Assembly (NCBI GenBank): GCA_038087875.1
Contig: CM075995.1
Location: forward strand, 8,930,001-8,994,000
DNA: 64,000 bases
Direction: 5' to 3'
DNA from: Malacoraja senta
Lineage: Eukaryota
The position numbers and the translations under genes were made by a program. This document shows, in pieces, positions 1,795-50,419 of the stretch. The stretch's first letter is position 1, and the number at the start of each line of letters is the position of its first letter. Under the pieces are notes generated by a model. That model did not search any database, was not told the DNA's origin, and saw nothing but the letters and a program-made list of their open reading frames with translations.

Positions 1795-1840
1795 CTTCTA
1801 CACACTCCTCTTCAGTTTCCTCAGTCAGTGCGGGGTTTTG
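1795..1840 (-). CDS. TRNAU1AP: TRNAU1AP-like exon 8 ([15 protein letters not shown])
   Basis: 46 nt, tttcag acceptor, gtgagc donor, phase 0 to 1; short acidic exon in the expected position before the C-terminal domain. Confidence 0.8.
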
Positions 1841-4800
1841 CTGAAACTGAATAAGTTTAGAGTTTAATTTATTATTGTCACACGAGGTCCAGTGAAAAGA
1901 TTTATGTTGCGTGCCATCCAGTCAGTGGAAAAACTAGATACAGATACAGGATAAAGGGAATAACGTTTAGTGCAAGGTAAAGCCAGTAAAGATAGTCCAA
2001 GGATCGCCAATGAGGTAGATTGGAGGTCAGGACCGCTCTCTAGTTGGTGATAAGATGGTTCAGTTGCCTGATAACAGTCAGGAAGAAACTGTCCCTGAAT
2101 CTGGAGGTGTGTGTTTTCACACTTCTGTACCTCTTTCCCGATGGGAGAGGGGGGAGAAGAGGGAGTGGCCAGGATGAGCCTCGATTATGCTGCTGGCCTT
2201 GCCGAGGCAGCGTGAGGTATAGATGGAGTCAATGGAAGGGAGGTTGGTTTGTGAGATCGAAGGTAGACACATAAAGCTGGGACCGGGCAGCTTCTCTGGA
2301 GAGAAGGAATGGGCGACGTTTCAAGTCGAGACCCTTGGTCCGTGTGATGGTACGGGCTACGTCCACAACACTCCGCAATGTCTTGTGCTTTCACGGTAGA
2401 GTTGCTGCCTCTCAGCACCAGAGACCCGGGTTCCATCCTGACTACGGGTGCTGTCTGTACGGAGCTTGCACGTTCTACACGCGACCTGCGCGCGTCCCCC
2501 CCCCCCCCCCCCGGGTGCTCCGGTTTCCCACCACACTCCAAAGGCGCACAGCTTTGTAGCCCCTAGTGGGTGAGATAGTCGTGTTAGTGTACGGGGATCA
2601 CTGGTCAACATGGACTCAGCAGGACGAAGGGCCCGTTTCCACGCTGTATCATTACAGTCCAAGGACACTAAACCTTTACTACACCTGCGAGACCAAAACC
2701 AAACCGAAAACTACAAATGTGGCCTCGTTGGTCAGCGCGGACTCAGTGGGCCGAAGGGCCTGTTTCCACGCTGCATCTATAATGTCCGAAGTAAAGTCGA
2801 AAGCGAACGTTTCCTATTAAAATGAGCGCAAACAATCTTCTAAGCATGAGATTACTAGAGTGTTATAGAGAAAGAATAAAAGTGCAGGAGTAGGCCATTC
2901 AGCCCTTCGAGCCAGCACCACCATTCAACATGATCATGGCTGATCATCCAAAATCAGTACCCCGTTCCTGATTTCTCCCCATATCCCCCGATTCCGTTAG
3001 CTCGAAGAGCTAAACCCAACTCTCTCTTGAAAACATCCAGTGAATCGGCCTCCACTGCCTTCTGTGGCAGAGAATTCCACAGATTCACAACTCTCTGGGT
3101 TAAAAAGTCTTTTCTCATCTCAGTCCTAAATGGCCGACCCCTTATTCTTGAACTGTGAAGCCCCTGGTTCCGGACCCTATAATAAAAAAGTGACCCTTGG
3201 TTCTGGACCTGGTCCCTACAATAGAAACTGGCGGTGGCTTTACCTCAGATAGTTGTGACATGCCGGTGGTCATCAGAGAGGAGGTTGCTGCCGAGGTCTC
3301 GGTGGTACCATACTGTGGGTATCCATACCCATAGGTTGCATACGGATCGTAGCCCCACTGGGAGTAATACTGCTGGTACTGCTGGTAGTACTGTGTGTAG
3401 TTGTAGCTGGCAGTCGGCTGGTACTCTGACTTTGTTTTTGCACTGAAAGCAGAAAGAGCATTCAATAGACAATAGGTGCAGGAGTAGTCCATTCGGCCCT
3501 TCCAGCCAGCACCGCCATTCAATGTGATCATGGCTGATCATCCCCAATCAGTACCCCGTTCCTGCCTTCTCCCCATATCCCCTGACTCCGCTATCTTTAA
3601 GAGCCCTATCTAGCTCTCTCTTGAAAGCATCCAGAGAACCTGCCTCCACTGCCCTCGAGGCAGAGAATTCCACAGACTCACAACTCTCTGTGAGAAAAAG
3701 TGTTTCCTCATCTCCGTTCTAAATGGCTTACTCCTTATTCTTAAACTGTGTGTGGCCCCTGGTTCTGGACTCCCCCAACATCGGGAACACGTTTCCTGCC
3801 TCTAGTGTGTCCAAGCCCATAACAATCTTATATGTTTCAATGATATTCCCTCTCATCCTTCTAAACTCCAGAGTATACAAGACCAGCTGCTCCATTCTCT
3901 CAGCATATTACAGTCCTGCCATTCCGGGAATTAACTTTGTAAACCTACGCTGCACTCACTCAACAGCAAGAATGTCCTTCCTCAAATTAGGGGACCAAAA
4001 CTGCACACAATACTCCAGGTGTGGTCTCACTAGGGCTCTGTACAACTGCAGAAGGACCTCCTTGCTCCTATATTCGATTCCTCTTGTTATAAAGGCCAAC
4101 ATGCCATTCGCTTTCTTCATTGCCTGCCAATTCAAATTAAACATTCACACTTGGGGGCGGTCAGGGTGGCGCAGCGGTAGAGTTGCTGCCTCACCCACCG
4201 CGCCACAGACCCGGGATCAACCCCCCCACCACGGATGCTCGACCCGTACGGAGTTCGCACGCTCTCCCCGTGACCGGCGTGGGGTTTTCTCCGAGTTCTC
4301 CGGTTTACTCCCACACTCGAAAGGTGTACAGGTTGAAAAGTTAATCAGCAGTTTCTCGTTAAGGAAGAGTGTTTAGCCTAGGAAACCTGGAGCAATTGCT
4401 TCCGAATGAAACAGCCGGCGACAACGTTTTCAAACGCGACTTGGGTCTCAAACACGCTTTTTCAGGAGTAGTTCATGAGTTGAAGGAGCAGAATTAGACC
4501 ATTCGGCCCATCAAGTCTACTCCTCCATTCAATCATGGCTGGTCTATCTCTCCCACCTAACCCCATTCTACTGCCTTCTCCCCATAAACCACAACACCCG
4601 CACTAATCAAGAATCTTTCTATCTCCGCCTTAAAATTATCCACTGACTTGGCCTCCACAGCCTTCCGCGGCAAAGAATTCCACAGATTCACCACCCTCTG
4701 ACTAAAGAAGTTCCTCGAATGAATGACTGAATAAGTTTATTGGCCAAGTATTCACATACAAGGAATTTGTCGGTGCTCCACCCGCAAGTGACAACATGAC

Positions 4801-10800: not shown

Positions 10801-13800
10801 AGAAAACCCACGCAGGTCACGGGGAGAACGTACAAACTCCGTACAGACAGCACCCGTAGTCGGGATTGAACCTGGGTCTCTGGCGCTGTGAGGCAGCAAC
10901 TCTACCACATACATGGGACATGCTGGCCGGTGAGGGTTAGTTGGGCCAAAAAGGGCCTGTTTCCACTCAGTCTGTACCCTTCATAACTTACCTTGGCCAC
11001 TGCCACCACATGATTCCAGAACTATCTTCACCCTCGGCCTGACTATCACTCACAAACTCCATCCTCACTGCTGCGTCTGGGTGACACTAGGCTGAGGAAT
11101 CTCCTTAAGTGGCTGGAAAGCAGACCAGCTGTAAACCCTTTTGCAATGAATGTCGAACACTTAATTAACGATGAACAGCTGCAGCTGTGAATTACTTGAG
11201 AGGCAGAAGATTAATCTAAATTGGAGGGGAGGGGGGAGGTGAAAAATGTTAGGAACCTGTTAAAATCACCGACCATGGTCAGAATCTCACACTGAAAATT
11301 AGTCAGTGGAGATTTTTTTAAAATTTAATTTAATTTTTTTTAAATAAATGATATCAGTCACAGTTCCTGATGGCACTGCACTTAAAATATTAACTGTCTG
11401 TTTTACACCACAGATGCTGCCTGATTTGCTGAGTTTCACCTACACCTCTTCACTTTAATACCCTTTGAGCAAAATACTTTGCCCCTCTGGCTCCTATTAA
11501 ATCTTTCCCCACCTCCCCTCAGTTAGATAGGGCTCTTAAAGATAGCGGAGTTATGGGATATGGGGAGAAGGCAGGAACGGGGTAATGAGTGTGGATGATC
11601 AGCCATGATCGCATTGAATGGCGGCGTTGGCTTGAAGGGCCGAATGGCCTACTGTCTAATACGGTGATAATAGACAATAGGTGCAGGAGTAGGCCATTCG
11701 GCCCTTCAAGCCAACGCCGCCATTCAATGCGATCATGGCTGATCATCCACAATCATTACCCCGTTCCTGCCTTCTCCCCATATCCCCATAACTCCGCTAT
11801 CTTTAAGAGCCCTATCTAGCTCTCCCTTGAAAACATCCAGAGAACCTGCCTCCACCGCCCTCTGAGGCAGAGAATTCCACAGACTCACCACTCTCTGTGA
11901 GAAAAAGTGTTTCCTCGTCTCCGTTCTAAATGGCTTACTCCTTATTCTTAAACTGTGGCCCCTGGTTCTGGACTCCCCCAACATCGGGAACATGTTTATT
12001 GTATGTGTATGAGACAAATAAAGTTGACTTGACGTAAACCTATGTCCTCTGTTTCTTAATTTCCCCTACTCGGGGTAAAAAAAAATCTCTGGACATTTAC
12101 CCAATCTATTTTTTCCTCATCATCTTATACACCTCTATAAGATCAGCCCTCATCCTCCTGCGCTCTGAAATCCAGGCCTGCTCAAACTCTCTCTCTATAG
12201 CTCAGGCCCTTGAGTACTGGCAACATCCACGTAAATCCTCCTTGGACTCTTTCAAGCTGAACATTTTTCCTATAACGTACGGGCTGCTCAAATTTGAACA
12301 CAACACTCACAATTACAGGGATGTAATGCCGAGCTTTATACTGCACTGGTCCGACCGCATTTGGTGTATTGTGAGCAGTTCCAACATCATGAGAGGAATA
12401 GATCGGGTAGACAATAGGCAATAGGTGCAGGAGTAGGCCATTCGGTCCTTCGAGTCAGCACCGCCATTCAATGTGATCATGGCTGATCATTCCCAATCAG
12501 TACACCGTTCCTGCCTTCTCCCCATATCCCCTGACTCCACTATTTTTAAGAGCCCCATCTAGCTCTCTCTTGAAAGCATCCAGAGAACCTGCCTCCACCG
12601 CCCTCTGAGGCAGAGAATTCCACAGACTCACCACTCTCTGTGTGAAAAAGTGTTTCCTCGTCTCCGTTCCAAATGGCTTACCCCTTATTCTTAAACTGTG
12701 TGTGGCCCCTGGTTCTGGACTCCCCCAACATCGGGAACATGTTTCCTGCCTCTAGTGTGTCCAAGCCCTTATCAATCTTATATGTTTCAATTGTATGGCT
12801 TGTATGGTGTGTGTGTAAAATTGTCCCGAGTGCATGCGGGCGGGGGGGGGGGGGTAGTGTTAATGTGTGCGGGTGATCGCTGGTCGGCGCCGACCCGGCT
12901 GGCCTGCTTCCGCGCAGTATCTGTGAACCCAACTGAACGGACGAACTGACCTTTTGGGCACGGCTATGCTGATTCGGATGGGTTTCCCTCCCAGCCCTTT
13001 GCTGTTCTGGCATTCCTCCAACGCCTTCTTCTGCTCGGCTTCATCGGAAAACCGGACGAATCCAAAGCCTCTGACAAAATAAAACCAAACAAGAGCAGCA
13101 TTTACACGGAGCCTCTCCGCGGCGGCTGAACAGGCTTGAATCAACTGCTTAAAATAGTTTGAACCACGTAGTATTAGAGTTATTACTTTACATCTGAGGT
13201 ACCATCAGTCCAAGTAATGGGTGTCCTTGTTAATCCTATCTGAGACAGAAAGAATGTTCTTATTCCAAGTGTAGTATGATTTTTCAAATAGCCACTGTGG
13301 TTTATAAGGGCTGTTTCATAGAAAATTATAAGACGGTCATTTAGTAATCATCGTTTAATATCGGTTTTCGCAGTCCTTATCACAGAGATACATAATTTTC
13401 ACTACTACTACTAATACTACTAATAATAATAATAGTAATAATAAACAGCGCTGTCTCTCTGGGTAGAAGTGTACACGAGCTCGTAGACGGCAATGTCATC
13501 TGGCGGATACACTACCTTGAGTTCCCGGACGTGTCTGTCACTACTTTCCCACCTCTACACGACGGATATTTTTTCACAAAGTAGTCGTACAGATGGAAGT
13601 CATCGACTTCTGAGGAGAGGTCGCCCACAAATATGGAGTATTCTTGGCTGTTGGGACAAAAGCGCACGGCAGTAAACCGGCTGTTGAAACCGCGGGCTGC
13701 AGAAATCCCGACTAAACTCTGTGCTCTAACATCAGTTTTAGTTTATCGTCACAAAGGCTTTCATTGGGATTATCAAAATAGTGGCGCAGCGGGTAGAGCT

Positions 13801-16800
13801 GCTGCCTCACAGCGCCAGAGACCCTGGTTCGATCCTGACCACGGGCGCTTGTCTGTAAGGAGTTTGTACGTACTCCCCCCGTGACCTGCTCGGGTTTTCT
13901 CCGGGTGCTCCGGTTTCCTCCCACACTCCAAAGATGTGCAGGTTTTAGGCTGTTTGACAATAGACAATAGTCAATGGACAATAGGTGCAGGAGTAGGCCA
14001 TTCGGCCCTTCGAGCCAGCACCGCCATTCAATGTGATCATGGCAGATCATCCCCAATCAGTACCCCCGTTCCTGCCTTCTCCCCATATCCCCTGACTCCG
14101 CTATTTTTAAGAGCCCTATCTAGCTCTCTCTTGAAAGCATCCAGAGAACCTGCCTCCACCGCCCTCTGAGGCAGAGAATTCCACAGACTCACCACTCTCT
14201 GTGTGAAAAAGTGTTTCCTCGTCTCCGTTCTAAATGGCTTACTCCTAATCCTTAAACTGTGGCCCCTGGTTCTGGATTCCCCCAACATCGGGAACATGTT
14301 TCCTGCCTCTAGCGTGTCCAAGCCCTTAACAATCTTATATGTTTCAATGAGATCTCCTCTCATCCTTCTGAACTCGAGTGTACAAGCCCAGCTGCTCCAT
14401 TCTCTCAGCGTATGACAGTCCCGCCATCCCGGGAATTAACCTTGTAAACCTACGCTGCACTCCCTCAATATTTGGCTTGGTAAAATTGTAACTTGTCCCT
14501 AGTGTGTGTCGGATAGTGTTAGTGTGCGGGGATCGCTGGTCGGCGCGGACTCTGTGGGCCGAAGGGCCTGTTTCCGCGCTGTATCTCTAAACTTAACTAA
14601 AATCAGGATTATCAAAATAGGGCGGCACAGTGTGGCGCAGCGGGTAAAGCTGCTAAACAAAGAGGATAGCACGCAAAGCAAAGCTTTTCCACTGTACCTC
14701 ATTACATGTGACAATAGTAAACCTAAACCTCACAAACTGAAATCAATCCAATTAATCGTTCACTATGTTTCTAATGATAAACCAAATGATGCCGTTACTA
14801 TCTAGATCTAATTTATAATACTCGTACTTTAGTTTAGTTTAGAGATACAACGTGGAAACAGGCCCTTCGGCCCACCGACTCCGTACCAACCAGCGATCCT
14901 CGCACATCAACACTACCCTGCACACACTAGGGGCAATTTACACTAATACCAAGCCAATTAACCTACAAACTTGTACGTCTTTGCAGTGCGGGAGGAAACC
15001 GAAGACCTCGGAGAAAACCCACGCGGGTCGCGGGGAGAACGTGCAAACTCCGTACAGACAGCACTCGTAGGCGGGATCGAACCCGGATCTTTGGCCTTGC
15101 GAGCGGTGTGAGGCAGCAACTCCACCGCTGCGCCACCGTGCCGCCTGTATGACGCCATCTTCTTTGAAGATGTTGTGAACGGCCATTTTGTTTGGTGCAC
15201 TCTGCAGGAAAGAGACAGGAAACTTGCTTGGAAATTCTGAGAATAAAGCTGAGTATAGAAATCGGGAGGTCATGATGAAGTTGTATAAGGACATTGGTGA
15301 GGCCACATTCAGAGTCCTGTGTTCAGATCTAGGCACCGTGTTATTGGTAAGATGTTGTTGTGGCGACTCTTGCCTACTGCATCAGTCTTAATCTACCTTT
15401 CTTACACCCTTGTACTTAAGTATTATTGTGCTTATGGATAAAGATTTCACTGGACTCTTTGCAAATAGACAATAGGTGCAGGAGTAGGCCATTTGGCCCT
15501 TCGAGCCAGCACCGCCATTCAATGTGATCATGGCTGATCATCCACAATCAGTACCCCGTTCCTGCCTTCTCCCCATATCCCCCTGACTCCGCTATCTTTA
15601 AGAGCTCTATCTAGCTCTCTCTTGAAAGTATCCAGAGAACCGGCCTCCACCGCCCTCTGAGGCAGAGAATTCCACAGACTCACATATGTACTTGGATACA
15701 TGTGACAATGTACCTGGATACAAAGTGCCGTCGATCTATTCTTACACCCAATGAAATTTCAGGAACTGAATATAATCATAACATCATAAGCGATAGGAGT
15801 ACAATTAGGCCACTCGGCCCATCAAGTGTAATCCGCCATTAAGTCTGCTCCGCACATCAATCGTGTACAGTCTTTCCGCTAACTGGATAGCCCGCTATAA
15901 AAACTTTTCACTGTTCCTCGGTACACATGACAATAAATTAAACCAAACTAAACCATACCAAACTAAATTAAACTAAACTAGGAACAAAAATCTGAAGGAA
16001 TGAGGAAATGTTGACAGACTCACCCTGCATCTGTTTTTTTGCCGTAGGTTGCATAGTTTAACTTGAATTTCTTGGGCTGTAAAATAAAATATATATATAA
16101 GTAGTTATATAGATACGGTCTTAATAGGTTCTAGGAGCAGAATTAGGCCATTTGGCCCGTCAAGTCTACTCCGCCATTCAATCATGGCTGGCCTATCTCT
16201 CCCCTCCTAACCCCATTCTCCTGCCTTCTCCCCATAACCCCCGTACTAATCAAGAATCTGTCTATCTCCAGTTTAAAAATACTCATTGACTTGGCCTCCA
16301 CAGCCGTCTTTGGCAATTAATTCCACAGATTCACCACCTTCTGACCGAAGAAATTCCTCCTCGTCTCCATTCTAAAGGAACGTCCTTTAATTCTGAGGCT
16401 GTGACCTCTGGTCCTAAACTCTCCCACTAGTGGAAACATCCTCTCCACATCCACTCTGTCCAGGCCTTTCACTATTCAGTACGTTTCTATGAAACCCCCC
16501 CCTCATCCTTCTTAACTCCAGCGAGTTATTTTAGGAAAACCAAACGGTGAACGTGGGTGAATGTGTATTGATGAGGTTTACCGGATTGGAGCCAGGCAGG
16601 GACTTTCCGTTCAGTTTGTGTAGACAGCGATCAGCGCTGGTTTGGTCAGCTAATTCCACGAAGCAATAGCCCGCTAACGTCCTGAAACAACACGAGAGGT
16701 TTGGTTACGTTTCATACTTTAATACGAAGGCACCAATGTAAAGCTACCCAATATTAAAATAGAAACATAGAAGATATGTGCAGGAGTAGGCCATTCGGCC

Positions 16801-19800: not shown

Positions 19801-22800
19801 TTTATAACCTTTTCTTACCCGGTCATTCGATTGCTTATGATTTTCACGTTTACTGTTGGCTCACCCATGGCAGAGAACGCTTGTTTAATAAAAGATTCAT
19901 CCATGTACTGTTCCAGCTGGGGAAAAAAAGGAATAATAACAGATTTATTTTCCAACATTTTCCAACAAGTTCGTGCCAACAACGTTTTGAAGTAATATTT
20001 CAGAAGAACGTTCTAATGATGGACCAAATGTGTCTTTAATGTGAGGGGCAAGACTTAAAGGGGCAGCACGGTGGTGGAGCTGCTGTCTCATTGCCGCACT
20101 GGTGAGTAAGGCAAGGCAGCGCCTTTACCACCTCAGGCAGCTGAGGAAATTCAGTCTCTCTGAGGATCCTTCAGTGCTTCTACTCTGGAGCTGTAGAAAG
20201 CTTCTTGTCTGGTAACATCTCGATCTGGTTTGGGAACAGCTCTGCCCAGGACAGGAAGGCTCTGCAGAGAGTAGTGCGTTCGGCCGAACGCACTATGGGA
20301 ACTACACTCGCCCCCCTGCAGGACCTATACACCAGGAGGTACAGATCCAGAGCCAGCAACATTATGGGGGACCCCTACCACCCCAGCAACGGACTGTTCC
20401 AGCTGCTACGGTCAGGCAAACGCCTCCGCTGTCACGCTGTGAAAACAGAGAGGATGAGACGGAGTTCTTCCCACAGGCCGTCAGGATTGTAAACTCTGAT
20501 CTCACCAGGGACTCATTTACTGTTGTGTTGTGTCTTTTTTTCTAAAATGTAAATACTGGTTCTGTTCTATTCTGTTCTGTTGTTTTTGCACAATCCACAG
20601 GCGTTGCCACTTTCATTTCACTGCACATCTTGTATGTGTATGTGTGACAAATAAACTTGACTTGACTTGTCAGAGACCAGGGTTCGATCCTGACTATGGT
20701 TGCTGCCTGCGCATGGAATTTGCACATTCTCCCCGTGACCTGCGTGGGTTTCCTCCAGGAGCTCCTGCGTTCGACTCGAGAGATACAGCGCAGAAACAGG
20801 CCCCTTCGGCCCACCGGGTCCGCGCCGACCAGCGATCACCCCGTACACTAGCGCTATCATTCCCCACTAGGGGGCAATTTACAATCTTACTCAAACCTGC
20901 AAGCCTGTACGTCGTTGGGTGTGGGAGGAAACCGGAGCACCCGGAGAAAACCCACGCAGGTCACGGGGAGAACGTACAACCTCCGTACAGACAGCACCCG
21001 TAGTCGGGATCGAACCCGGGTCTCAGGCGCTGTGAGGCAGCAACTCTACCGCTGCGCCACCCTGAATCCACATTGCAAAGAATTACATGTTTGCAGGCTA
21101 ATTGGCCCTCTGTAAATTGCCCCTGGTGTGTAGGGAGTGGATGAGAAAGTGGGATAACATAGAACTATTGTGAACGGGTGGGCGATCTTTTGTGTAGACT
21201 CGGTGGGCCGAAGGGCCTGTTTCCATGCTGTAACATTTAATGAATCAATCTATCAATGTGAGGGTTAAGGTGTGATTACACTTTTAAATAAAAGAGATAT
21301 GCAAACAAGTTTGCTTATAGATTATTACAAAGAGCAAGGGCGTCACGGTGGCGCAGCGGTAGAGTTGCCGCCTAACGGCGCCAGAGACCTGGGTTCATTC
21401 CTGACTGTACGGAGTTTGTACGTTCTCCCTGTGACCTGCGTGGGTTTTCTCCGGGTGCTCCGGTTTCCTCCTACACTCCCAAAACGTGCAGGTTTGTAGG
21501 TTAGACACAAAGTGCCCAAGTAACTCAGCGGGTTGGGCAGCACCTCTGGAGACAAGGAATAGGTGACGTTTCGGGTCGAGACCCTTCTTCAGACTGAGCA
21601 CGGGTTCATCAATGTGGGGCGAGTCCAGAACCATGGGCCACACAGTCTTAGAATAAAGGGGAGGCCATTTAAGACTGAGGTGAGAAAAAACTTTTTCACC
21701 CAGAGAGTTGTGAATTTATGGAATTCCCTGCCACAGAGGGCAGTGGGGGCCAAATCACTGGATGGATTTAAGAGAGTTAGATAGAGCTCTAGGGGCTGGT
21801 GGAGTCAAGGAATATGGGAAGAAGGCAGGCACGGGTTATTGATAGGGGACGATCAGCCATGATCACAATGAATGGCGGTGCTGGCTCGAAGGGCCGAATG
21901 GCCTCCTCCTGCACCTATTTTCTATGTTTCACCATCGAATTTCAGGCTGGTGGTCTGGCCCCTCATTTAATCCTGACAAAATTCCCACCCCGCTCCAGCA
22001 GATGTGTTGCCGTAGCCGGCTTCCGAGGCCGACTTTGCGGGCCGGTATCTGGGCTCCTCGGCGGAACATTCCGGTTCCGTTGGACTCCTCTCGGAGGCCG
22101 TGACCTCTGTTGCTGTGGCAACGCAGTTAATATGGCAAGAATATCATTGTTCTGTTTCGGCACATACAGTGCCCTCCATGTTTGGGACAAAGACCCATCA
22201 TTTATTTATTTGCCTCTGTAACCAACAATTTGAGATTTGTAATAGAATAACATCACATGTGGTTAAAGTGCACATTGTCAGATTTTATTAAAGGCCATTT
22301 TTATACATTTTGGTTTCACCATGTAGAAATTACAGCTGTGGTTATACATAGTCCCCCCCATTTCAGGGCACCATAATGTTTGGGACACATGGCTTCACAG
22401 GTGTTTGTAATTGTTCAGGTGTGTTTAATTGCCTCCTTAATGCAGGTATATGAGAGCTCTCAGCACCTAGTCTTTCCTCCAGTCTTTCCATTACCTTTGG
22501 AAACTTTTATTGCTGTTTATCAACATGAGGACCAAAGTTGTGCCAATGAAAGTCAAAGAAGCCATTTATGAGACTAAGAAACAAGAATAAAACTGTTGGA
22601 GACATCAGCCAAACCTTAGGCTTATCAAAATCAACTGTTTGGAACATCATTAAGAAGAAAGAGACCACTGGTGAGCTTACTAATCGCAAAGGGACTGGCA
22701 GGCCAAGGAAGACCTCCACAGCTGATGACAGAAGAATTCTCTCTATAATAAAGAAAAATCCCCAAACACCTGTCCGACAGATCAGAAACACTCTTCAGGA

Positions 22801-28800: not shown

Positions 28801-31032
28801 GTATGTGTATGTGACAAATAAAGTTGACTTGACTTCTGAGGAAGTCCCCATCCCTCCAAATCCCCTACCCTAGTGATCCGAAGGGTCCCCTCCATGGGAC
28901 CTGCAAGGGGGTCACCCCCTCTCATCTCTTCTCTCGCCCTTTCTCTGGATCTTTGGGAGTCACCCACCCCCGCCTCTCCTCTGAGGGGCTCACCACCCTC
29001 TCTCTCCCCTCAACCTCCACCACCTCCAGTTTAAATTGCACTTGGAATATTTTGGATGACCAAGGAACCAAGTCTGGAGTCCCTGTCTCAGCAATCCCCC
29101 CCCCTTCTCTCCCTCCCCTCCCTCTCATCCACACTCCCTTGTCACCCCCTTCACTCTCCCCCCCTCCATCTAACTCCCCTCCCTCTCTCACCCCCCCCTC
29201 TCTCCCACTCCCTTCTCTCTCTTCCCCCCTCTTCTCTCACCCTCCCCTCCTTCTCGTCTCTCCTCCCAGCCCAGGATCTGAGGGGTTACCCATTTTCCCA
29301 CACCCTACCCCTTTATAACCCCCCCTCCACCTCAGCCCCAGCCCACTGTCCCTCCCCCCCCCCACCACCACATAAGTGGTGTCACCAACCCCCACCCTCA
29401 CCTCACACTCTCCCCCTGACCCCTCCCCCCCCTCATCACCACAGCATCTCAGGGATCATTAACCTCAGGATCTCCCCTCCTCCCCCCAGGGGTGTCACCA
29501 CCCCCACTGCCTTCTCCCCATGAGAGGGGGGGTCACCATCACCATCCCCCCATGAGAGGGGGGGGTCACCACCCCTCTCTCCCTCCCTCCCCCCCTCTGT
29601 CCCCTTGAGGGGTTACCCCTTCTCCCACACTCTACCCCTCCACTTCAGCCCACTCTCCCTCCCCCCCCACCCCCCCCACCACCACATAAGTGATGTCACC
29701 ACCACCACCCCCCTCCCCTCACCTCACATTTCCCCCCCATATCACCGCAGCATCTCAGGGATCATTAACCTCAAACTCTCCCCTCCTCCCCTCAGGGGGG
29801 AGTCACCACCCCCACTCCCTCCCTCCCCCACTCCCTCCCCTTGAGAGGGGGTCATCACCTCCCCCATGGGGGGGGTCACCATCCCTCTCTCCCTCCCTCC
29901 CCCCTCCCTATGTCCCCTGAGGGGTGACCCCTTCTCCCACACTCTCTCCCCTCCCCCCCTCACACCGCAGCATCTCAGGGATCATTAACCTCAAACTCTT
30001 CCCTCCACCTCTCAGGGGGGAGTCACCACCCCCACTCCCACTCCCCCCCCCCCCCATGAGAGGGGTCATCACCTCCCTCATGGGGGGGGGGGGTTCACCA
30101 TCCCTCTCTCCCTCCCTCCCCCTCTATGTCCCCCTGAGGGGTGACCCCTTCTCCCACACTCTGCCCCTCCACCTCAGCCCACTCTCCCTCCCCCCCCACC
30201 CCCCCCACCACATAAGTGGTGTCACCACCCCCACACTCTCCCCCCCCCTCACACTCTCTCCCCCCCCCCCACCCATCACCAAAGCATCTCAGGGATCATT
30301 AACCTCAGGATCTCCCCTCCTCCCCTCAGGGGGGAGTCACCACCCCCACTGCCTCCTCCCCATGAGGGGGGGGGGTCACCATCACCATCATCATCACCCC
30401 ATGAGGGGGGGGGTCACCATCATCATCACCCCATGAGGGGGGGGTCACCATCACCCCATGAGGGGGGGGGGTCACCATCACCATCATCATCCCCCCATGA
30501 GGGGGGGGGGGTCACCATCACCATCCCCCCATGAGGGGGGGGGTCACCATCACTATCCCCCCATGAGGGGGTCACCATCACCATCACCATCACCCCATGA
30601 GGGGGGGGTCACCATCACCATCATCATCACCCCATGAGGGGGGGGGTCACCATCACCATCATCATCACCCCATGAGGGGGGGGGTCACCATCACCATCAT
30701 CATCACCCCATGAGGGGGGGGTCACCATCACCATCACCCCATGAGGGGGGGGGTCACCATCACCATCCTCCCATGAGGGGGGGGGGGGTCACCATCACCA
30801 TCACCCCATGAGGGGGGGGGGTCACCATCACTATCCCCCCATGAGGGGGTCACCATCACCATCATCATCACCCCATGAGGGGGGGGGGTCACCATCACCA
30901 TCACCCCATGAGGGGGGGGGTCACCATCACCATCACCCCATGAGGGGGTCTCTCTCTCCCCCCCACCCCCACCCCCACCCCCACCCCTCCCCTCTGTCCC
31001 CCACTCACGTCTCCCATCCACAGGGTGGCCAT
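1795..31032 (-). CDS. TRNAU1AP: tRNA selenocysteine 1-associated protein 1-like (SECp43 family; probable trnau1apb/C6orf52-locus paralog), 8 coding exons, 3'-partial
   Basis: Exons 31032-31009, 19916-19819, 16681-16582, 16076-16024, 13647-13516, 13070-12951, 3442-3244 and 1840-1795 join in frame (772 nt) with GT-AG introns. The product has two RRMs, a Tyr/Gln-rich region and an acidic segment. The terminal exon was not found in the window. Confidence 0.93.
3244..3442 (-). CDS. TRNAU1AP: TRNAU1AP-like exon 7, Tyr/Gln-rich ([34 protein letters not shown]...SQLSE)
   Basis: 199 nt, ctttcag acceptor, gtaaag donor; YYQQYQxYYxQWGYD is characteristic of SECp43. Confidence 0.93.
3463..4128 (-). mobile_element. 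CR1 LINE 3' fragment abutting the exon 7 acceptor
   Basis: ORF 3956..4144 minus; tail CTATTGTCTATTG ends at 3463. Confidence 0.9.
4717..5590 (-). mobile_element. Rex/Babar-type LINE 3' fragment
   Basis: ORF 4853..5515 ([11 protein letters not shown]...[13 protein letters not shown]...LPSGRR) preceded by KFADDT; (CATT)n tail. Confidence 0.85.
7872..8647 (-). mobile_element. 5'-truncated Vingi/Ingi-like LINE inserted in a CR1 copy
   Basis: ORF 7894..8619 ([14 protein letters not shown]...LPVLAGIAP), frameshifted C-terminal CCHC, short GAAG-type tail, 13-bp TSD CAAATTAGGAGAC (7859-7871 and 8648-8660). Confidence 0.8.
9395..10482 (+). mobile_element. Two tandem CR1 3' fragments
   Basis: ORFs 9397..9687, 9909..10100 and 10058..10270. 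Confidence 0.85.
10992..11062 (-). CDS. Putative alternative first coding exon of the TRNAU1AP-like gene ([23 protein letters not shown]), giving a C6orf52-like short isoform
   Basis: Strong Kozak (gtgaggATGG), in-frame TAG upstream, 71 nt to a consensus donor AG|GTAAGT in phase 2, which is compatible with exon 7; sits in non-repetitive sequence. Confidence 0.65.
12951..13070 (-). CDS. TRNAU1AP: TRNAU1AP-like exon 6 ([39 protein letters not shown])
   Basis: 120 nt, ttttgtcag acceptor, gtcagt donor; RRM2 RNP1 RGFGFV; contained in ORF 12860..13144. Confidence 0.95.
13516..13647 (-). CDS. TRNAU1AP: TRNAU1AP-like exon 5 ([44 protein letters not shown])
   Basis: 132 nt, AG/GT boundaries, phase 2 to 2; RRM2 RNP2 IFVGDL. 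Confidence 0.95.
16024..16076 (-). CDS. TRNAU1AP: TRNAU1AP-like exon 4 ([18 protein letters not shown])
   Basis: 53 nt, acag acceptor, gtgagt donor; conserved [10 protein letters not shown]. Confidence 0.95.
16582..16681 (-). CDS. TRNAU1AP: TRNAU1AP-like exon 3 ([33 protein letters not shown])
   Basis: 100 nt, tttcag acceptor, gtaaac donor; RNP1 motif GYCFVE. Confidence 0.95.
17360..18240. mobile_element. Penelope-like element remnant (GIY-YIG C-terminus) in inverted arrangement
   Basis: Fragments [19 protein letters not shown] and [14 protein letters not shown]...GMNIDFSNF occur on both strands (about 17365-17630 minus, 17780-18240 plus), each followed by a hammerhead-like motif. Confidence 0.8.
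19570..19741. mobile_element. 172-bp fold-back MITE (TAG...CTA termini, TAA TSD; Academ-like ends)
   Basis: Nearly fully palindromic; interrupts the CR1 sequence atccttctaa|actccagc with duplication of TAA. Confidence 0.85.
19819..19916 (-). CDS. TRNAU1AP: TRNAU1AP-like exon 2 ([33 protein letters not shown])
   Basis: 98 nt, ccag acceptor, gtaag donor, phase 0 to 2; RRM1 sequence. Confidence 0.95.
20098..20668 (+). mobile_element. Second Rex/Babar-type LINE family, 3' fragment (related copy at about 27085-27615 minus)
   Basis: LRQLRKF...[23 protein letters not shown]...LLRSGKRLR; (CTTGA)n tail. Confidence 0.8.
21563..21598 (-). ncRNA. Minimal hammerhead ribozyme motif
   Basis: Reverse strand reads CTCAGT-CTGAAGA-A-GGGTCTCGACCC-GAAA-CG-TC-AC. 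Confidence 0.6.
22167..23794 (+). mobile_element. Tc1-family (DD34E) DNA transposon, decayed, IR/DR-type long TIRs
   Basis: TA then CAGTG left end; about 220-bp left TIR mirrored at about 23594-23794; the extreme right terminus is missing; internal transposase remnant. Confidence 0.93.
22525..23563 (+). pseudogene. Tc1 transposase pseudogene
   Basis: HTH region with [17 protein letters not shown] and SPDLNPIE (34 residues between D and E); frameshift near 22567, stops at 22934 and 23330. Confidence 0.93.
24040..25875 (+). mobile_element. CR1 (HER1-type) LINE, about 1.8-kb 3' portion of ORF2, decayed
   Basis: [52 protein letters not shown] and RPHLEYC-type motifs with frameshifts. Confidence 0.92.
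27940..28612 (+). mobile_element. CR1 LINE 3' fragment
   Basis: ORFs 28043..28252 and 28206..28535. Confidence 0.88.
29050..30360. repeat. C-rich low-complexity region with several imperfect long tandem repeats
   Basis: GCATCTCAGGGATCATTAACCTCA recurs four times (about 29443, 29749, 29969, 30283); strong C skew on the plus strand. Confidence 0.8.
30355..30950. repeat. Minisatellite, about 25-40 bp unit CCCCATGAG(G)nTCACCATCA(CCATCA)n
   Basis: More than 15 variable units directly visible, ending about 60 nt from the exon 1 donor. Confidence 0.92.
31009..31032 (-). CDS. TRNAU1AP: TRNAU1AP-like exon 1 (MATLWMGD)
   Basis: ATG GCC ACC CTG TGG ATG GGA GAC followed by gtgagt; matches the SECp43 N-terminus (SLWMGD, RNP2); lies in a CpG-rich region. 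Confidence 0.92.
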
Positions 31033-31039
31033 TTCCCGT

Positions 31040-34399: not shown

Positions 34400-34599
34400 N
34401 NNNNNNNNNNNNNNNNNNNNNNNNNNNNNNNNNNNNNNNNNNNNNNNNNNNNNNNNNNNNNNNNNNNNNNNNNNNNNNNNNNNNNNNNNNNNNNNNNNNN
34501 NNNNNNNNNNNNNNNNNNNNNNNNNNNNNNNNNNNNNNNNNNNNNNNNNNNNNNNNNNNNNNNNNNNNNNNNNNNNNNNNNNNNNNNNNNNNNNNNNNN
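34400..34599. other. Assembly gap (200 N)
   Basis: Run of N bases. Confidence 1.
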
Positions 34600-37305: not shown

Positions 37306-37382
37306 ACACACGAGCGAACGAACCATGCGTACAATTGTATTGACTTTGTAATTAAAATCAAGTCTGTTTATTTGGTGCACAG

Positions 37383-37480
37383 GAGACCATCATTGCCATT
37401 GCTGGAGATGAAGAGAACGTCAGTCTCTATGACGCTGACTCACAGAAATGTCTCTGTGAATTTAAGGCTCACGAGACCAG
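37383..37480 (+). CDS. PAK1IP1: PAK1IP1 exon (ETIIAIAGDEENVSLYDADSQKCLCEFKAHETR)
   Basis: 98 nt, cacag acceptor, gtacag donor; resembles the recalled human segment AVAGDEE...CLCEFKAHENR. Confidence 0.93.
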
Positions 37481-40400
37481 GTACAGTGAAAGTCTTTGTC
37501 GTCCAATAAAGGGTCCCTCATAAGTTCATAAGTGATAGGAGCAGATTTAGGATATTCGGCCCCATCAAGTCTACGCCATTCAATCGTGGCTGATCTATAT
37601 TTCACTCTCAACCCCATTCTCCTGCCTTCTCCTCATAACCCCTGAAACCCGTACCAATCTAGACCCGAAACGTCACCTTTTCTCCAGAGATGCTGCCTGG
37701 CCCACTGAGTTACTCCAGCTTTTTGTGTCTATCATCGGTTTAAACCAGCATCTGCAGTTCCTTCCTACACGTTTTTGTTGGGCTGCAGGTTCATTTGTAT
37801 TTATGGATAGAAGTGTGGATAGAAAGCTGGGTGGCAGAAGGCAAAGTGGCAATAAAGGGGGCATTTTCTGGTTGGCTGCCAGTGACTAGCGGAGTTCCAC
37901 AGGGCTCAGTGCTGGGGCCGCTACTCTTCACGTTGTATGTCAATGATTTGGACGAGGGGATTGAAGGCTTTGTGGCCAAGTTTGCGGATGATACCAAGAT
38001 AGGTCGAGGGGCAGGTAGTGTAGAGAAAGCAGGGACTCTGCAGAAGGACTTGGACAGGTTGGGAGAGTGGGCAGAGAGGTGGAAGATGGAATGTAGTGTA
38101 GCAAAGTGTGGAGTCATGCATTGTGGTAGTAGGAATAAAGGCGTAGACTATTTTCTAAATGGGGATATATCCAGAAATCGGAGGTGCAAAGGGACTTGGG
38201 AGTGCTAGTGCAGGATTCCCAAAATAGCTCATTCACAAGTCGAATCGGTAGTAAGGAAGGCAAACGCAATGCTGGCATTATTTATTTATTTAGAGAGGAC
38301 TAAAGTATAAAAACTGGGATGTAATGTTCCAATAGGCGCTGGTCAGGCCGCTTTTGGAATATTGTGAGCAGTTTTGGGCCCCATATCTGAGGAAGGATGT
38401 GCTGGCTCTGGAGAGGGTCCAGAGGAGATTTACGAGAATGATCCCAGGAATAAGTGGGTTAACATATGATGAGCATTTGACGGCACTGGGCCTGTACTCG
38501 CTGGAGTTTAGATGGATGAGGGGAAACAATACTCCAAATTTTATCCACGATCAAAGAAAAAAAGTGAGATAGACAGACACAAAAAGCTGGAGTACTCAGT
38601 GGGACAGGCAGCATCACTGGAGAGAAGGAAAGGGTGACGTTTCGGGGGGAGACCCTTCTTCAGACTGACCCCGAAACATCACCCATTCCTTCTCTCCAGA
38701 GATGCTGCCTGTCTCACTGAGTTACTCCAGCTTTTTGTGTCTATCTTCGGTTTAAACCAGCATCTGGAGTTCCTTCTTACACAAAAGAAAAGAGATAATA
38801 GTTCAAGTTAATTCTTCAACTTTAGTTGTGTTTGTTGAGGGTTAAACGTTATCCAGAACACCAGGGCAACTCCCTGCATTACTTTGAATCGAGACAACTC
38901 CTCACTCCTGGAATAATACTGAGGAACTTTTATCTTTCTGTAAACAGACAGGCCCTCCAGTTAATCAATGGGAATTTGACCACTCCTTTGTGCAACGAAA
39001 CATTCAGTTCAGTTTAGTTTATTGTCACGTGTTATCGAGGTACAGTGAAACACTTGTCGCGTGCTAACCAGTCAGCGGAAAGATAATACACGATTACAAT
39101 CGATCTATTTACAGTGTACAGGTACAGGATAAGGGAATAACGTTTAGTGCAAGGTAAAGTCCGGTCAAGGATAGTCCGAGGGACATCAAAGAGTAAGAAT
39201 AAGGAGTAAGCCATTTAGAACGGAGACGAGGAAACACTTTTTCTCACAGAGAGTTAGAGATACAGCATGGAAACAGGTTCTCCGGCCCAGCGAGTCCACG
39301 CCGACCAAAGATCACACCTTACACTCGCACTATCTTACACACTGGGGACAATTTACAATTTGTACCAAAGCCAATTAACCTACAAACCTGCACGTCTTTG
39401 GGATGTGCGAAGAAACCGGAGCACCCGGAGAAAACCCCCCACGTTGTCTCAGGGAGAACGTACAAACTCCACAGAGACAGCACCCTTGGTCAGGATCGAA
39501 CCCGTGTCTCTGGCGCTGTGAGGCAGCAACTCTGCCACTGCCTCAAAAAGGCAGGCAGCATCATCAGAGTAACCCACGCCACCCTGGCCACGCTCTCATT
39601 TCACCCCCGCCATCGGGAAGAATGTACAGGAGCCTGAAAACTGTAACGTCCAGGTTCAGGAACAGCTCCTTCCCTACAGCCATCAGGCTATTAAACACTA
39701 CAACCTCCAAATAAGTTCTGAACTACATAGACTTGGGAATGTAGGAAGGAACTGCAGATGCTGGTTTAAACCGCAGATAGACACAAAAATCTGGAATAAC
39801 TCAGCGGGACAGGCAGCATCTCTGGAGAGAAGGAATGGGTGACGTTTCAGGTGCAGATCCTTCTTCAGACTAGAGGGGGTATTATTTTTGTCTATTCTCT
39901 ATTATTATTTGTTCTTTTTTTATAAATTGTGCTGCTGTCTGGAATTGCCTCAGTGGGCGGTGGAGGCAGGTTCTCTGGATGCTTTCAAGAGAGAGCTAGA
40001 TAGGGCTCTTAAAAATAGCAGAGTCAGGGGATATGGGGAGAAGGCAGGAACGGGGTACTGATTGTGCATGTTCAGCCATGATCACATTGAATGGCGGTGC
40101 TGGCTCGAAGGACCGAATGGCCTACTCCTGCACCTATTGTCTATTGACTATTGCTTGCAAGTCAGAATTCAATCGTTTTGTTTCGGGACATGACAATAAA
40201 ACACTCTTGACTCTTGCTACCGAAGATATGCAGTCAGTTCTGGAGCGTGATCAGTCTGTGTTGAGGGAAGGTGCTGCCCTTTGGGTGTGTGATGAGTTTG
40301 ATAACATTGGTGGATGGGGGAGGTATAACCTTTGCGCCAAAGAACATTGCAAAGGACGTCTTATCACATCTGCGCAGTGGAATGTGCATCTCTTCAATCC

Positions 40401-43400
40401 AATGCATTTTCCACTTTGTTACTTTCATAGAGCGTGGCAACAAGCCCTTTGGCCCAACTGGCCCATACCGACCAACATGTGCCATGGACACCAGCCCCAC
40501 CTGCCCGCATTTGGACCATATACCTCTCAACCTGATTCTTGCTATTGAGGGAGTGCAGCGTAGGTTTACAGGCTAATTCCCGGGATGGCGGGACTGTCAT
40601 ATGCTGAGAGAATGGAGCAGCTGGGCTTGTACACTCTGAGGTTTAGAAGGATGAGAGGGAATCTCATTGAAACATATAAGATTGCTAAGGGTTTGGACAC
40701 GCTAGAGGCAGGAAACATGTTCCCGATGTTGGAGGAGTCCAGAACCAGGGGCCACAGTTTAAGAATAATGAGTAAGCCATTTAGAAAGGAGACGGGGAAA
40801 CACTTTTTCTCACAGTGAGTGGTGAGTCTGTGGAATTCTCTGCCTCAGAGGGCGGTGGAGGCAAGTTCTCTGGATGCTTTCAAGAGAGAGCTAGATAGGG
40901 CTCTTAAAAATAGCGGAGTCGGGGGATATGGGGAGAAGGCAGGAACGGGGTACTGATTGGGGATGATCAGCCATGATCACATTGAATGGCTCGAAGGGCC
41001 GAAGGGTCAAATGGAATGGCCTACTCCTGCACCTATTGTCTATTGTCTATAAAAGTGTATAAGATCATGGGATAAATAGATCGGGAAATAGACAGACTCT
41101 TTTACCCAGAACAGGGGAATCAAGAGCCAGAGGACATATGTTTATGGTGGGTGGGAAAGATTTAATATAAACCTGAGGGGCAACTTTTTCATACAAAGGG
41201 TGGGGGGTGAATGGAACGAGCAGCCGGAGGAGGTAGTTGGGGCAGGGGACTATGGCAACGTTGAAGAAACATTTAGACAGGTGCATGGATAGGACAGGTT
41301 TAGAGGGATATGGGCCAAACGCAGGCAGGTGGGACTAATGTCGATGGGGCATGTTGGTTGGCGTGGCGAGATGGGCCGAAGGGCCTGTTTCCGCGCTGTA
41401 TGTCGCTATGACTTTATAATCATCTAACTTCAACTTTTACATTTTCTTCAGAGTGAAAGCCTTGCACTTCTTCCGAGTGGGAGAGAATAATGTTCTGGCC
41501 ACGGCTTCCAGCGATGGCTACATTAAACTGTGGAAGCTGAACGTCGAGGAGGTAGGCATGCATTTCTTTTCATGAATGATGTAATGCTGCCCCGTCAGAG
41601 TTTTCTGTATCGGTGTCTCGCTTCAAGGCAGAGTAATGACGAAGCACATGGTTATTTTTTGTGTCTGTCCGGCTGGATCGGAACATAAAGATCACTAACA
41701 CTATTGCTATTGAGGGAGTGCAGCGTAGGTTTACAAGGTTAATTCCCGGGATGGCGGGACTGTCATATGCTGAGAGAATGGAGCGGCTGGGATTGTACAC
41801 TCTGGAGTTTAGAAGGATGAGAGGGATTCTCTTATTGAAACATATAAGATTGTTAAGGGCTTGGACACGCTAGAGGCAGGAAACATGTTCCCGATGTTGG
41901 GGGAGTCCAGAACCAGGGGCCACAGTTTAAGAATAAGGGGTAAGCCATTTAGAACGGAGATGAGGAAACACTTTTTCTCACAGAGAGTGGTGAGTCTGTG
42001 GAATTCTCTGCCTCAGAGGGCGGTGGAGGCCGGTTCTCTGGATGCTTTCAAGAGAGAGCTAGATAGGGCTCTTAAAAATAGTGGAGTCAGGGGATATGGG
42101 GGAGAAGGCAGGAACGGGGTACTGATTGGGGATGATCAGCCATGATCACATTGAAAGGGTGCTGGCTCGAAGGGCCGAATGGCCTACTCCTGCACCTATT
42201 GTCTATTGTAAAGATCACTAATGCACACAGCTGGAGCACAATGGAAACATCTCTACAAGCGGTACAGTGGCGCAGTGGTAGAGTTGCTGCCTTGCAGCGC
42301 TAGAAAGCCATGTTCGCTCCTAGCTACGGGCGTTGGCTGTATGGAATTTGTACATTCTCCCTGTGACCGCGTGGGTTTTCTCCAGTTTCCTCCCACACTC
42401 CAAACTAGTAGTCCAGGTTTGGAGTTTAATTAGCCTCTGTAAATTTTAAATATTCCCTGGTGTGCAGGATAGTGCTAGTATACGGGGAGATGGCTAGTCG
42501 GTGCAGATGCGGTGGGCAGAAGGGCCTTTTTCCATGCTGTATCTCTAAACTCTACAGTCAAGACCAAAAACCAGATTATAAACCGGAATCTGCAGCTCCT
42601 TGTATCTGAAATGGAAATGGATAAGACCATAGGAGTAGAATCAGGCCATTTGGTCCATCGAGTCTTGTCCGTCATTCAATCGTGGCTGATGTATCTCTCC
42701 CTCTCAACCCCATTCTCCTGCCTTCTCCCCACACCCCTGACACATTTACCAATCAAGAACTTGTCAATCTCCACTTTAAAAATACCCAATGATGGCCTCC
42801 ACAGCTGTCTGTGGCAATGAATTCACCACTCTCTGGGTAAATAGATTCCTCCTCGTCTTCATTCTAAAGGTACGGCCCTTTATTCTGAAACTAAATGATT
42901 GGAATTATGTTCTGATCTGAAACATCATCTGTCCGTTCCCTCCTCAGATACTGCCCGACCCTCTGTTCACCTCCAGTATTTTAGTATGTTGTTCCAAAGA
43001 GACTTGTGAATGGAAACAAAATTGTGAAACGTGTTTAAGCCCAAAAGTGAACTCTTGCAAATAAATGATATTTGGAAAGAAAAAGCTCAGAAAATTCATC
43101 AGTTGAGCAGTTAGTGTTTTGGGTGTAAAGTTAATCTTTTTTCTCTCAAGTCTAGGGGCTAATGGAATCAAGGGATAATGGGGTGAAGGCATGCACGGGT
43201 TATTGATTGGGGATGATCAGCCATGATCGCATTGAATGGCGGTGCTGGCTCGGCGGGCCGAATGGCCTCCTCCTGCACCTATTGTCTATGTTTCTATGTC
43301 TGAGGAAATAAAATGGCATCAGGGGAGTTATTTTTAATTAGAGGACAGAAGACATAAACGGAAGGGCACAGAGTGCTGGAGTAACTCAGCGGGTCAGGCA

Positions 43401-46400: not shown

Positions 46401-47662
46401 AGCCCTTAACAATCACAGGTAGATATGGTGGTGAAGAAGGCTTTTGGCATGTTGACCTTCACCAGTCACAGCGGTGCTGGCTCGAAGGTCCGAAAGGCCG
46501 ACTCCTGCACCTATTGTCTATTGTACAGAAGTTGGAATGCTATGTCACTTCATTATTTTCCAGACATGTTTATTAATCATCAATACTGGCACATTTGTAG
46601 TTACAAAAAACATATTAAATATTTGGAACAGAATGTTGAAGTCCACTTTTCCCAAGTTTATTGCGACATACCACAATAAAATAAATGAAGATTGGATATT
46701 CAAATGATTTTAGAAGTTGGTGAACTGCTTTAAATGTGAATGTAGTATTTAAATGTCATTTAGTTTAGAGGTACAGTTATAATTATGCAGAGATATTGCT
46801 ACAAGAATGATGTTGTCAAGTTGGAAAGGGTGCAGAGATTTACAAGGATATTGCCGGAACCCGAGGGCCTGAGCTATAAGGAGAGGTTGGGCATGCTAGG
46901 TCCTTATTCCTTGGAATGCAGGAGGATGAGGGGGTGATCTTATAGAGGTGTATAAGATCATGCGGGGGATAGGTTGAATGCACAGAATCCTTTACCCAGA
47001 GTAAGTGGATCAAGAACCAGAGGACATAGGTTTAAGGTGAAGGGGGAAAGATTTGATAGGAATCTAATAATAATAATAATAATAAATTTTATTTATGGGC
47101 GCCTTTCAAAAGTCTCAAGGACACCTTACAAAGTTTAACATGTAAGCGGAAATAAATAAATATTAAAGACATCACGAGTACACAAATTAAAGCCAGTATT
47201 TAATCCAAAAACAAAAATCAAAAACACACTATGGAAGATATCTGAGGGGCAACTGTTTCACACAAGGTGGTGGGTGTATAGAACAAGCTGCAGGGACTAT
47301 CACAACATTTGAAATACAGTTAGGCAGGTACTTGGATAGGATAGGGTTGGAGGGATATGGGCCAAACGCAGGCAGGTGGGACTAGTATAGATGGGGCATC
47401 TTAATCGGCATGGGCATGTTGGGCCGAAGGGCCTGTATCCGTGCCGTACGACTAATTGTTCTCTTGAGTTTTTAAACTATTTTCCCGCGTTTGTTCTTTT
47501 GCAGAAGATGCAGCTACGAATAAATGTTTTAAAGAAAATAAAAATAAAATGGAGGCAACTCTCTCGGTCGGAGCCACACCTCCAGAGACAAAGCGGCAAA
47601 TTTTACACAAGAGAAAAACAATTGTTAAGACAAAGGCGAAAACAAAGAAAATTAAGCAATAA
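37383..47662 (+). CDS. PAK1IP1: p21-activated kinase-interacting protein 1 (WD40, Mak11 homolog), last four exons, 5'-partial
   Basis: Exons 37383-37480, 41452-41551, 44100-44217 and 47505-47662 join in frame; WD40 motifs CEFKAHETRVK, TASSDGYIKLW and NTKARLTCLAVW, plus a Lys-rich tail. Confidence 0.93.
37795..38525 (+). mobile_element. CR1 LINE fragment, divergent subfamily (related piece at about 5590-5925 minus)
   Basis: SGVPQGSVLGPLLF...[12 protein letters not shown]. Confidence 0.85.
41452..41551 (+). CDS. PAK1IP1: PAK1IP1 exon (VKALHFFRVGENNVLATASSDGYIKLWKLNVEE)
   Basis: 100 nt, ttttcttcag acceptor, gtaggc donor; WD40 repeat end. Confidence 0.94.
43367..44000. repeat. 66-bp tandem array (6 units) plus about 3 inverted units, Penelope-derived
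   Basis: Units at 43367, 43433, 43499, 43565, 43631 and 43697; inverted copies about 43811-44000. Confidence 0.92.
44100..44217 (+). CDS. PAK1IP1: PAK1IP1 exon (IQKCPELLSEVNTKARLTCLAVWLSNVTQGVADKGAHGQ)
   Basis: 118 nt, ttgttttag acceptor, gtatag donor; conserved ARLTCLxVW. Confidence 0.93.
47505..47662 (+). CDS. PAK1IP1: PAK1IP1 terminal coding exon, Lys-rich tail (...KRKTIVKTKAKTKKIKQ*)
   Basis: ttgttcttttgcag acceptor, phase-compatible, TAA at 47660-47662, followed by an AT-rich UTR. Confidence 0.85.
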
Positions 47663-50337: not shown

Positions 50338-50419
50338 ATGGCGGCAGCGACGGACTGGCCCGGCTTCGGATACGCGGCGCTGGTGGCGGCCGGCGGGCTG
50401 CTCGGATACGTCAAAGCGG
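50338..50419 (+). CDS. TMEM14C: TMEM14C coding exon 1 ([27 protein letters not shown])
   Basis: aacATGG Kozak, 82 nt, gtgaga donor. Confidence 0.93.

Follow-up and report, generated by a model that had tools for sequence, protein, structure and literature searches.

TRNAU1AP/SECp43 is the orthologue of Nam8 (PMC7169965), and its C-terminal part carried most of the exon-inclusion activity when tethered (PMC11389820). Residues 248-287 of the human protein were needed to co-purify PRPF39, in an experiment done once, and its helix 1 was needed for the enrichment of U1, U4 and U5 (PMC13408128); in mouse, embryos die when exons 7-8 are deleted but can do without exons 3-4 (PMC4456167). C6orf52, to whose homologues Pfam already assigns the PF17654 family, was called ‘completely uncharacterized’ in 2022 (PMC9263446), has been proposed as an expression quantitative trait locus driver in rat (PMC5087832) and is elevated in human oocytes (PMC10775140). 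In the literature searched, no paper named both C6orf52 and TRNAU1AP; the search did not extend to papers behind subscriptions, to supplementary files or to the study of rat RGD1562963 by Wang et al. (2015), any of which could hold such a link. Here, we analysed 64,000 nucleotides (nt) of the skate Malacoraja senta (assembly GCA_038087875.1, contig CM075995.1, positions 8,930,001 to 8,994,000; ‘the window’ below is this whole stretch, numbered from its first letter). This cartilaginous-fish locus bears a nine-exon TRNAU1AP-like gene on its minus strand, and intron 6 of that gene holds a 71-nt frame that may serve as the first coding exon of a short, C6orf52-like form lacking the RRMs.

A candidate first coding exon in intron 6

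The nine coding exons of the long form (Table 1) together encode 304 amino acids (aa), 302 of which are identical in the skate protein P0017 (XP_032870771.1). A Pfam search found two RRM_1 stretches and PF17654 in P0017, and the window exons match both families. With an intact frame that runs through two RRMs and then PF17654, the long form has the make-up of the TRNAU1AP/SECp43 family.

An earlier note, made from the letters of this DNA, had proposed a hidden start exon in intron 6, and every part of the proposed frame is present in the sequence: on the minus strand, an ATG at 11062-11060 with G at both −3 and +4, 23 open codons, a phase-2 donor at 10992 and an in-frame TAG upstream of the ATG (Table 1). 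Joined to exon 7 (3442-3244, 199 nt), the candidate exon stays in frame, and the predicted short product has 152 aa and no RRMs. Of the coding lengths given in that note (71/199/46), the first two hold, and the third has to be corrected to 52 nt, the length of exon 8 that fits the orthologous proteins. This exon could begin at either of two acceptors on the minus strand, 1846 and 1840, which are 6 nt apart and in frame with each other; the orthologous proteins take the upstream, lower-scoring one.

Intron 6 is 81% repeat-covered, and the candidate exon lies, together with its upstream region, in a repeat-poor island of 546 bp. A search of the skate's own genome finds the island DNA at full length once. 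Directly upstream of the island, at 11521-11821, a dispersed element forms an inverted repeat of 314 bp with 88% identity. No Pfam family matched the 24-residue unspliced frame. The one sequencing run listed for 10985-11340 covers the unique exonic and intronic sequence of 10960-13800 at an even depth of 24-28, and its contigs are unspliced; this run behaves as genomic DNA, may be the source of the window itself, is uninformative on expression and contains no variant within the candidate exon.

To judge how unusual the frame is, we scored donors with a simple matrix of textbook frequencies; its 5-bit cut-off was picked after the site had been seen. At 8.78 bits, the candidate donor is the top of 557 GT in intron 6 (runner-up, 4.92) and exceeds all eight donors of the gene's known exons (1.2-6.3 bits). 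Among the 199 ATG-to-GT phase-2 candidates in the intron, it is the only one with a donor of at least 5 bits. We then scanned both strands of large DNA stretches (928 kb, candidate included), in which an ATG followed by 23 open codons and a GT occurs at 371 sites. Nine of these have Trp at residue 22 and two have a donor of at least 5 bits; the candidate alone has both. It again stood alone in the 928 kb on loosened terms (21-25 codons, Trp within the last four, donor of at least 5 bits). The chance per intron is about 0.01 for length and donor, and a few in 10,000 when Trp22 is added, both with cut-offs set post hoc.

The same layout recurs in RRM-less relatives, which we gathered using exon 7 and short relatives as queries. 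These are the coelacanth protein P0041 (153 aa) and, from caecilians, Rhinatrema P0109, P0169 and P0171 and Geotrypetes P0170 and P0172, the caecilian entries carrying the database name ‘C6orf52 homolog’. In all six proteins, from three genera, a leader of 23 residues ends in Trp22-Gln23 ahead of the exon 6/7 junction residue. In caecilians the isoforms begin to differ precisely at residue 24, either Arg or Ser; a phase-2 boundary is thereby marked at this point, and the alignment would put the coelacanth boundary at the same place. RRM-less relatives with a leader of the proposed length and phase thus exist in coelacanth and in two caecilian genera. The skate frame likewise has 23 codons plus 2 nt, enters the exon-7 equivalent in phase 2 and has Trp22, plus Trp20 as in coelacanth. 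Its last six residues score 9.7 against the relatives' leaders, a value reached by 2 of 2855 background candidates, neither with a donor of at least 5 bits. As a control, coelacanth and caecilian leaders were compared with each other: 8 of 23 residues are identical and none of 5000 shuffles reached their score, and by this measure the two are homologous. Homology of the skate leader is probable from its position, length, phase and Trp-rich end, not from its overall sequence. Taken together, the feature is real and unusual, and is probably a homologue of the C6orf52 leader exon.

Mammalian C6orf52 was not recovered by three homologue searches or by a representative-sequence search, and a scan of metagenomes with exon 7 confirmed none of 598 pattern matches. 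The Atlas search returned a 148-aa, 122-member PF17654 cluster (score 0.91), possibly the query's own, and no usable match for the coelacanth leader. A WQ register shifted by two residues was dropped: it needs gaps and does no better than chance.

How a short form could be produced

We consider it fairly probable that the skate makes a short RRM-less isoform by one route or another. The route for which we see the case as evenly balanced is that the 71-nt frame is an ancient alternative first coding exon with its own promoter, spliced to exons 7-9 and the counterpart of C6orf52. We infer the use of the exon, the internal promoter, an oocyte bias and the homology of the leader. Three CAGCTG boxes and a TTAATTAA element sit 69-125 nt upstream of the ATG as a putative proximal promoter; nowhere else among the 107 boxes in 294 kb do three cluster in this way. 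In mouse, CAGCTG and TAATTG/A serve as elements of oocyte promoters (PMC3718783).

Several observations weigh against an ancient, self-promoted exon. The score cut-offs were fixed only once the site was known, and the E-box cluster was chosen after inspection, with two of its three boxes forming one tandem. Upstream of the candidate ATG there is neither a CpG island (observed-to-expected ratio (o/e) 0.24) nor a TATA(A/T)A box, and 11276 holds an ATG that is out of frame and well placed in its context. The whole skate 23-mer is not significantly similar to the three leaders: against them it gives ungapped BLOSUM62 sums of −5, −9 and 0, with 3, 2 and 3 of 23 residues identical; residues 2-17 are unlike, and the shuffle p is 0.09, ungapped and gapped alike. 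Gly9-Phe10 and Gln23, common to coelacanth and both caecilians, are missing in skate, which has Ala-Glu and Pro. The Pro23 codon, CCA, is one base off a Gln codon. The leader appears in none of the 39 cartilaginous-fish proteins of this gene among the matches listed (12 of the 27 members of the largest cluster lie outside them), and the closest of them, P0017, is not labelled as an isoform, a hint that just one form is annotated. Finally, in the tree described below the group that includes C6orf52 homologues is ill-resolved (8 of 21 inner branches open, long branches), and the orthology of the bird, lungfish and short forms hangs on a single 97/95 branch and on database names.

Some of these points are what one would see if the exon were not used at all: the ATG and donor might have come together by chance in repeat-poor sequence, or might be silent remains of the ancestral exon, with skates making the long form only. 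The similarity of the peptide to real leaders is far below that between coelacanth and caecilian, no listed cartilaginous-fish protein carries it, and about 2.7 donors of at least 5 bits and 0.08 of at least 8 bits are expected by chance per 9.5 kb. However, these features are found together nowhere else in the 928 kb, even on loose terms, and an idle exon would be unlikely to keep its ATG, frame, length and perfect donor in an intron so rich in repeats. We therefore regard an unused frame as unlikely. The same protein could also be made without an internal promoter, from a transcript of the shared CpG-island promoter. This transcript, beginning with exon 1 or with a first exon that is non-coding, would be spliced to an acceptor at 11112, skip the RRM exons and be translated from 11062. 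That AG is the top one within 300 nt of the donor, its 2.3 bits fall inside the range of the gene's used acceptors (−1.3 to 8.1), and RRM skipping is annotated in the relatives P0001, P0006 and P0008. Nevertheless, it ranks only 25th of the 735 AGs in the intron, and the repeat-poor island, which holds the E-box cluster, reaches about 400 nt upstream beyond the acceptor, more than an acceptor needs. Exon 1 joined to 11112 would read 23 codons and stop 2 nt before the ATG, an upstream frame that would cut translation, although re-initiation is possible. Splicing from upstream thus seems to us quite unlikely as the source of the short form.

A further explanation leaves the short protein out altogether. 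As the earlier note had pointed out, the AG at 11112 would make a 121-nt cassette that breaks the long frame, and inclusion after exon 6 does bring in a stop inside the cassette. The 121-nt cassette could accordingly be a poison exon, included between exons 6 and 7 to cause decay in an autoregulatory loop, with the ATG and its codons incidental. Human TRNAU1AP regulates itself via a poison exon (PMC13408128), and mouse mRNA without exons 7-8 is up-regulated (PMC4456167). The human poison exon, however, lies in intron 3 (PMC13408128) and the candidate in intron 6, so homology between the two was set aside. Within intron 3 of the skate gene (505 nt), no donor scores more than 1.6 bits. The gene has a better poison candidate of its own, a 49-nt stop-adding cassette in intron 5 (Table 1) which, in its other reading, matches the annotated stingray isoform P0002 (XP_059801597.1) in 16 of 17 residues; the cassette is likely to be a poison exon that serves autoregulation and has been conserved, and it lies in another intron than its human counterpart in function. 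Moreover, a regulated cassette would have no need of a perfect donor, and the match in 23 codons and Trp22 would be left unexplained. Of the poison-exon proposal, the stop on inclusion stands, provided that the acceptor at 11112 is used; a poison role as the sole function of the cassette is very unlikely.

Locus, paralogy and loss of the RRMs

We built a midpoint-rooted tree from 24 C-terminal parts out of 172 proteins (one or a few per lineage, with most near-identical bird partials omitted and no mammalian C6orf52 row). A 97/95 branch sets hagfish and the five rows of canonical TRNAU1AP apart from the 18 that remain, and the skate gene falls on the TRNAU1AP-like/C6orf52 side, apart from canonical TRNAU1AP. 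On the divergent side of the gene lie a WD40 gene and then a TMEM14-family gene, in agreement with the rat order Tmem14c, Pak1ip1, RGD1562963 (C6orf52), Gcnt2 (PMC4003853 Table 3), and this is therefore probably the C6orf52 locus. Tree split and gene order together support the earlier assignment of the gene as a TRNAU1AP-like paralogue at a locus ordered like mammalian C6orf52. From gene order against rat alone we infer that the WD40 neighbour is PAK1IP1; PDB searches gave it the name WD40 only. Its 5′ exons were not found on the plus strand between the CpG island and 37356 (31500-37300); they may fall in the N gap at 34400-34599 or be absent from the assembly.

Within the TRNAU1AP-like/C6orf52 group, shark, ray and chimaera entries either have the full length or bear RRMs, RRM2 remains in sturgeon and birds and RRM1 in lungfish, and the coelacanth, caecilian and bichir entries have no RRM. 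The coelacanth and caecilian leaders are homologous, and RRMs are present in lungfish and birds; leader exon and RRM exons were therefore likely both present in the lobe-finned ancestor. This argument can be made without the skate, on the assumption of a single locus and of annotations that are complete. Skate evidence would carry the two-part ancestor back to all jawed vertebrates and place the leader between exons 6 and 7. That one ancestral locus held both RRM exons and the leader exon, in line with the earlier note's proposal that it made both forms, is the simplest reading of the protein set, against which stands the whole-peptide similarity of p about 0.09. Its further statement that mammals kept only the short form proved too narrow, because the coelacanth, caecilian and bichir entries are also RRM-less and birds and lungfish keep one RRM each; judged by these entries, RRM loss is repeated across lineages and not mammal-specific. 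The routes differ: the electric-ray entry starts as if exon 2 were joined to exon 7, bichir entries start inside exon 7, lungfish is without RRM2, and birds are without RRM1 and have a new basic N-terminus (P0001, P0052, P0147, P0069, P0067). Loss by such varied routes suggests an RRM-independent role for the C-terminal helices.

A separate short gene copy in the skate genome was set aside, as PF17654 matches this locus alone. Canonical TRNAU1AP was not found in the assembly by searches with PF17654 and a canonical-type protein, which match only this locus, nor was it present near TAF12 or an RCC1-family gene, the neighbours expected from human (C23:2800001-3000000 and C23:1290001-1460000, with five 200-N gaps). 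The canonical gene may be missing from the assembly, or the skate may have no full-length copy besides the paralogue. At C1:254723246-255096063 we observed three equal-scoring sets of RCC1-repeat matches about 180 kb apart, either a recent tandem triplication or an assembly duplication.

Table 1. Positions of the candidate exon, the long-form exons and neighbouring features in the window
Feature	Position	Strand	Details
Candidate first coding exon	10992..11062	-	ATG + 23 codons + 2 nt = 71 nt, phase 2
Donor AAG/GTAAGT	10986..10994	-	Perfect consensus; cuts after 10992
In-frame TAG	11087..11089	-	Nine codons upstream of ATG
Possible weak acceptor	11112..11126	-	First exon base 11112; 2.3 bits, rank 25/735 AGs in intron
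E-boxes and TTAATTAA element	11126..11187		CAGCTG at 11187, 11181, 11131; TTAATTAA at 11167; putative proximal promoter
Repeat-poor island	10975..11520		546 bp; contains candidate exon and upstream region
Exon 1, coding part, long form	31009..31032	-	24 nt; inside CpG island 31001-31500, o/e 0.99
Exon 2	19819..19916	-	98 nt; RRM1
Exon 3	16582..16681	-	100 nt; RRM1
Exon 4	16024..16076	-	53 nt
Exon 5	13516..13647	-	132 nt; RRM2
Stop-adding cassette, intron 5	13187..13235	-	49 nt; weak donor; stop in long frame; likely poison exon
Exon 6	12951..13070	-	120 nt; RRM2; ends at 12951 in phase 2
Exon 7	3244..3442	-	199 nt; Tyr/Gln-rich start of PF17654; common to long and predicted short form
Exon 8	1795..1846	-	52 nt by orthologous proteins; second AG 6 nt on gives 46 nt
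Exon 9	contig (C19) 8929056-8928920	-	137 nt including stop; just outside window
WD40 gene exon fragments	37356..47659	+	Divergent orientation; WD40 matches below Pfam cut-offs
TMEM14-family gene	50338..61684	+	PF03647 on three exons, two above cut-off

Elsewhere in the window, a GC-rich open frame follows the TMEM14 gene directly (62554-63549, plus strand) and has one CCCH zinc finger above the Pfam cut-off; we take it to be ZFP36-like, possibly a second exon or a frameshifted copy. Intron 1 contains two consecutive transposase frames split by one stop (22550-23332, plus strand), presumably Tc1/mariner-like, and two larger non-exonic islands in the gene resemble transposon frames.

A predicted decoy and its closest described counterparts

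If the candidate exon is used, the 71-nt first coding exon, probably under its own promoter and possibly in oocytes, would be spliced to exons 7-9 and yield a 152-aa protein without RRMs. This protein would retain the Tyr-rich helix and the terminal helix, which engage small nuclear ribonucleoproteins and the PRPF39 dimer in human TRNAU1AP. Lacking RRMs, it could not be aimed at RNA and might compete with the full-length protein for PRPF39, which would damp TRNAU1AP-dependent exon inclusion. The jawed-vertebrate locus would once have encoded both forms, with lineages later shedding the RRM exons independently. It is from the retention of both helices without an RRM that a PRPF39-titrating decoy is proposed; given that the isoform exists, we would expect this mechanism about as readily as not, the alternative being an RNA-independent adaptor brought in by other proteins. 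In the last 46 residues, the skate protein is identical to the three short forms at 33, 29 and 25 positions. No similar solved structure was found for the short form (best E 0.095), and Atlas models have a predicted template modelling score of 0.16-0.17.

In its widest version, which we put forward as a rather unlikely scenario, the jawed-vertebrate paralogue would have encoded for about 450 million years both a two-RRM regulator and an RRM-less PRPF39 decoy driven by an oocyte promoter; the skate would hold both, and human C6orf52 would be the surviving decoy, tuning TRNAU1AP-PRPF39 splicing, and so RNase P/MRP, in oocytes. Use of the skate exon would explain the origin of the odd C6orf52 leader and would mean that a gene arose when only one of the two isoforms of its ancestor was retained. 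One prediction is independent of the skate: C6orf52 should bind PRPF39 and oppose TRNAU1AP.

Compared with canonical TRNAU1AP/SECp43, the skate long form has the same two RRMs and PF17654, with 31-32 of the terminal 46 residues identical, and likely shares poison-exon autoregulation in kind. It differs in its place across the 97/95 branch and in that the human poison exon lies in intron 3; for canonical TRNAU1AP, the portions of the literature searched describe no RRM-less start-exon isoform. The predicted short form is closer to the C6orf52 homologues of coelacanth (XP_064410435.1), Rhinatrema (XP_029446503.1) and Geotrypetes (XP_033790104.1), which likewise have PF17654 only and no RRM, a 23-residue Trp22 leader before a phase-2 junction and a similar size (153 and 159 aa, against 152 predicted). 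In its divergent neighbours, a WD40 gene (PAK1IP1 by gene order) and then TMEM14, the locus probably also resembles that of C6orf52; human C6orf52 and rat RGD1562963 enter this comparison through published descriptions. In contrast to these homologues, the skate leader is predicted from DNA alone, is unlike them at residues 2-17, is missing Gly9-Phe10 and Gln23, and lies within intron 6 of a gene that is intact and has two RRMs. Internal promoters also give rise to a known class of truncated dominant-negative isoforms and microProteins, with a like arrangement: an internal start drops the nucleic-acid-binding domain and keeps the protein-interaction part. Here both binding and inhibition are predictions, and the present case would differ from that class in that the short form later became the whole gene in several lineages.

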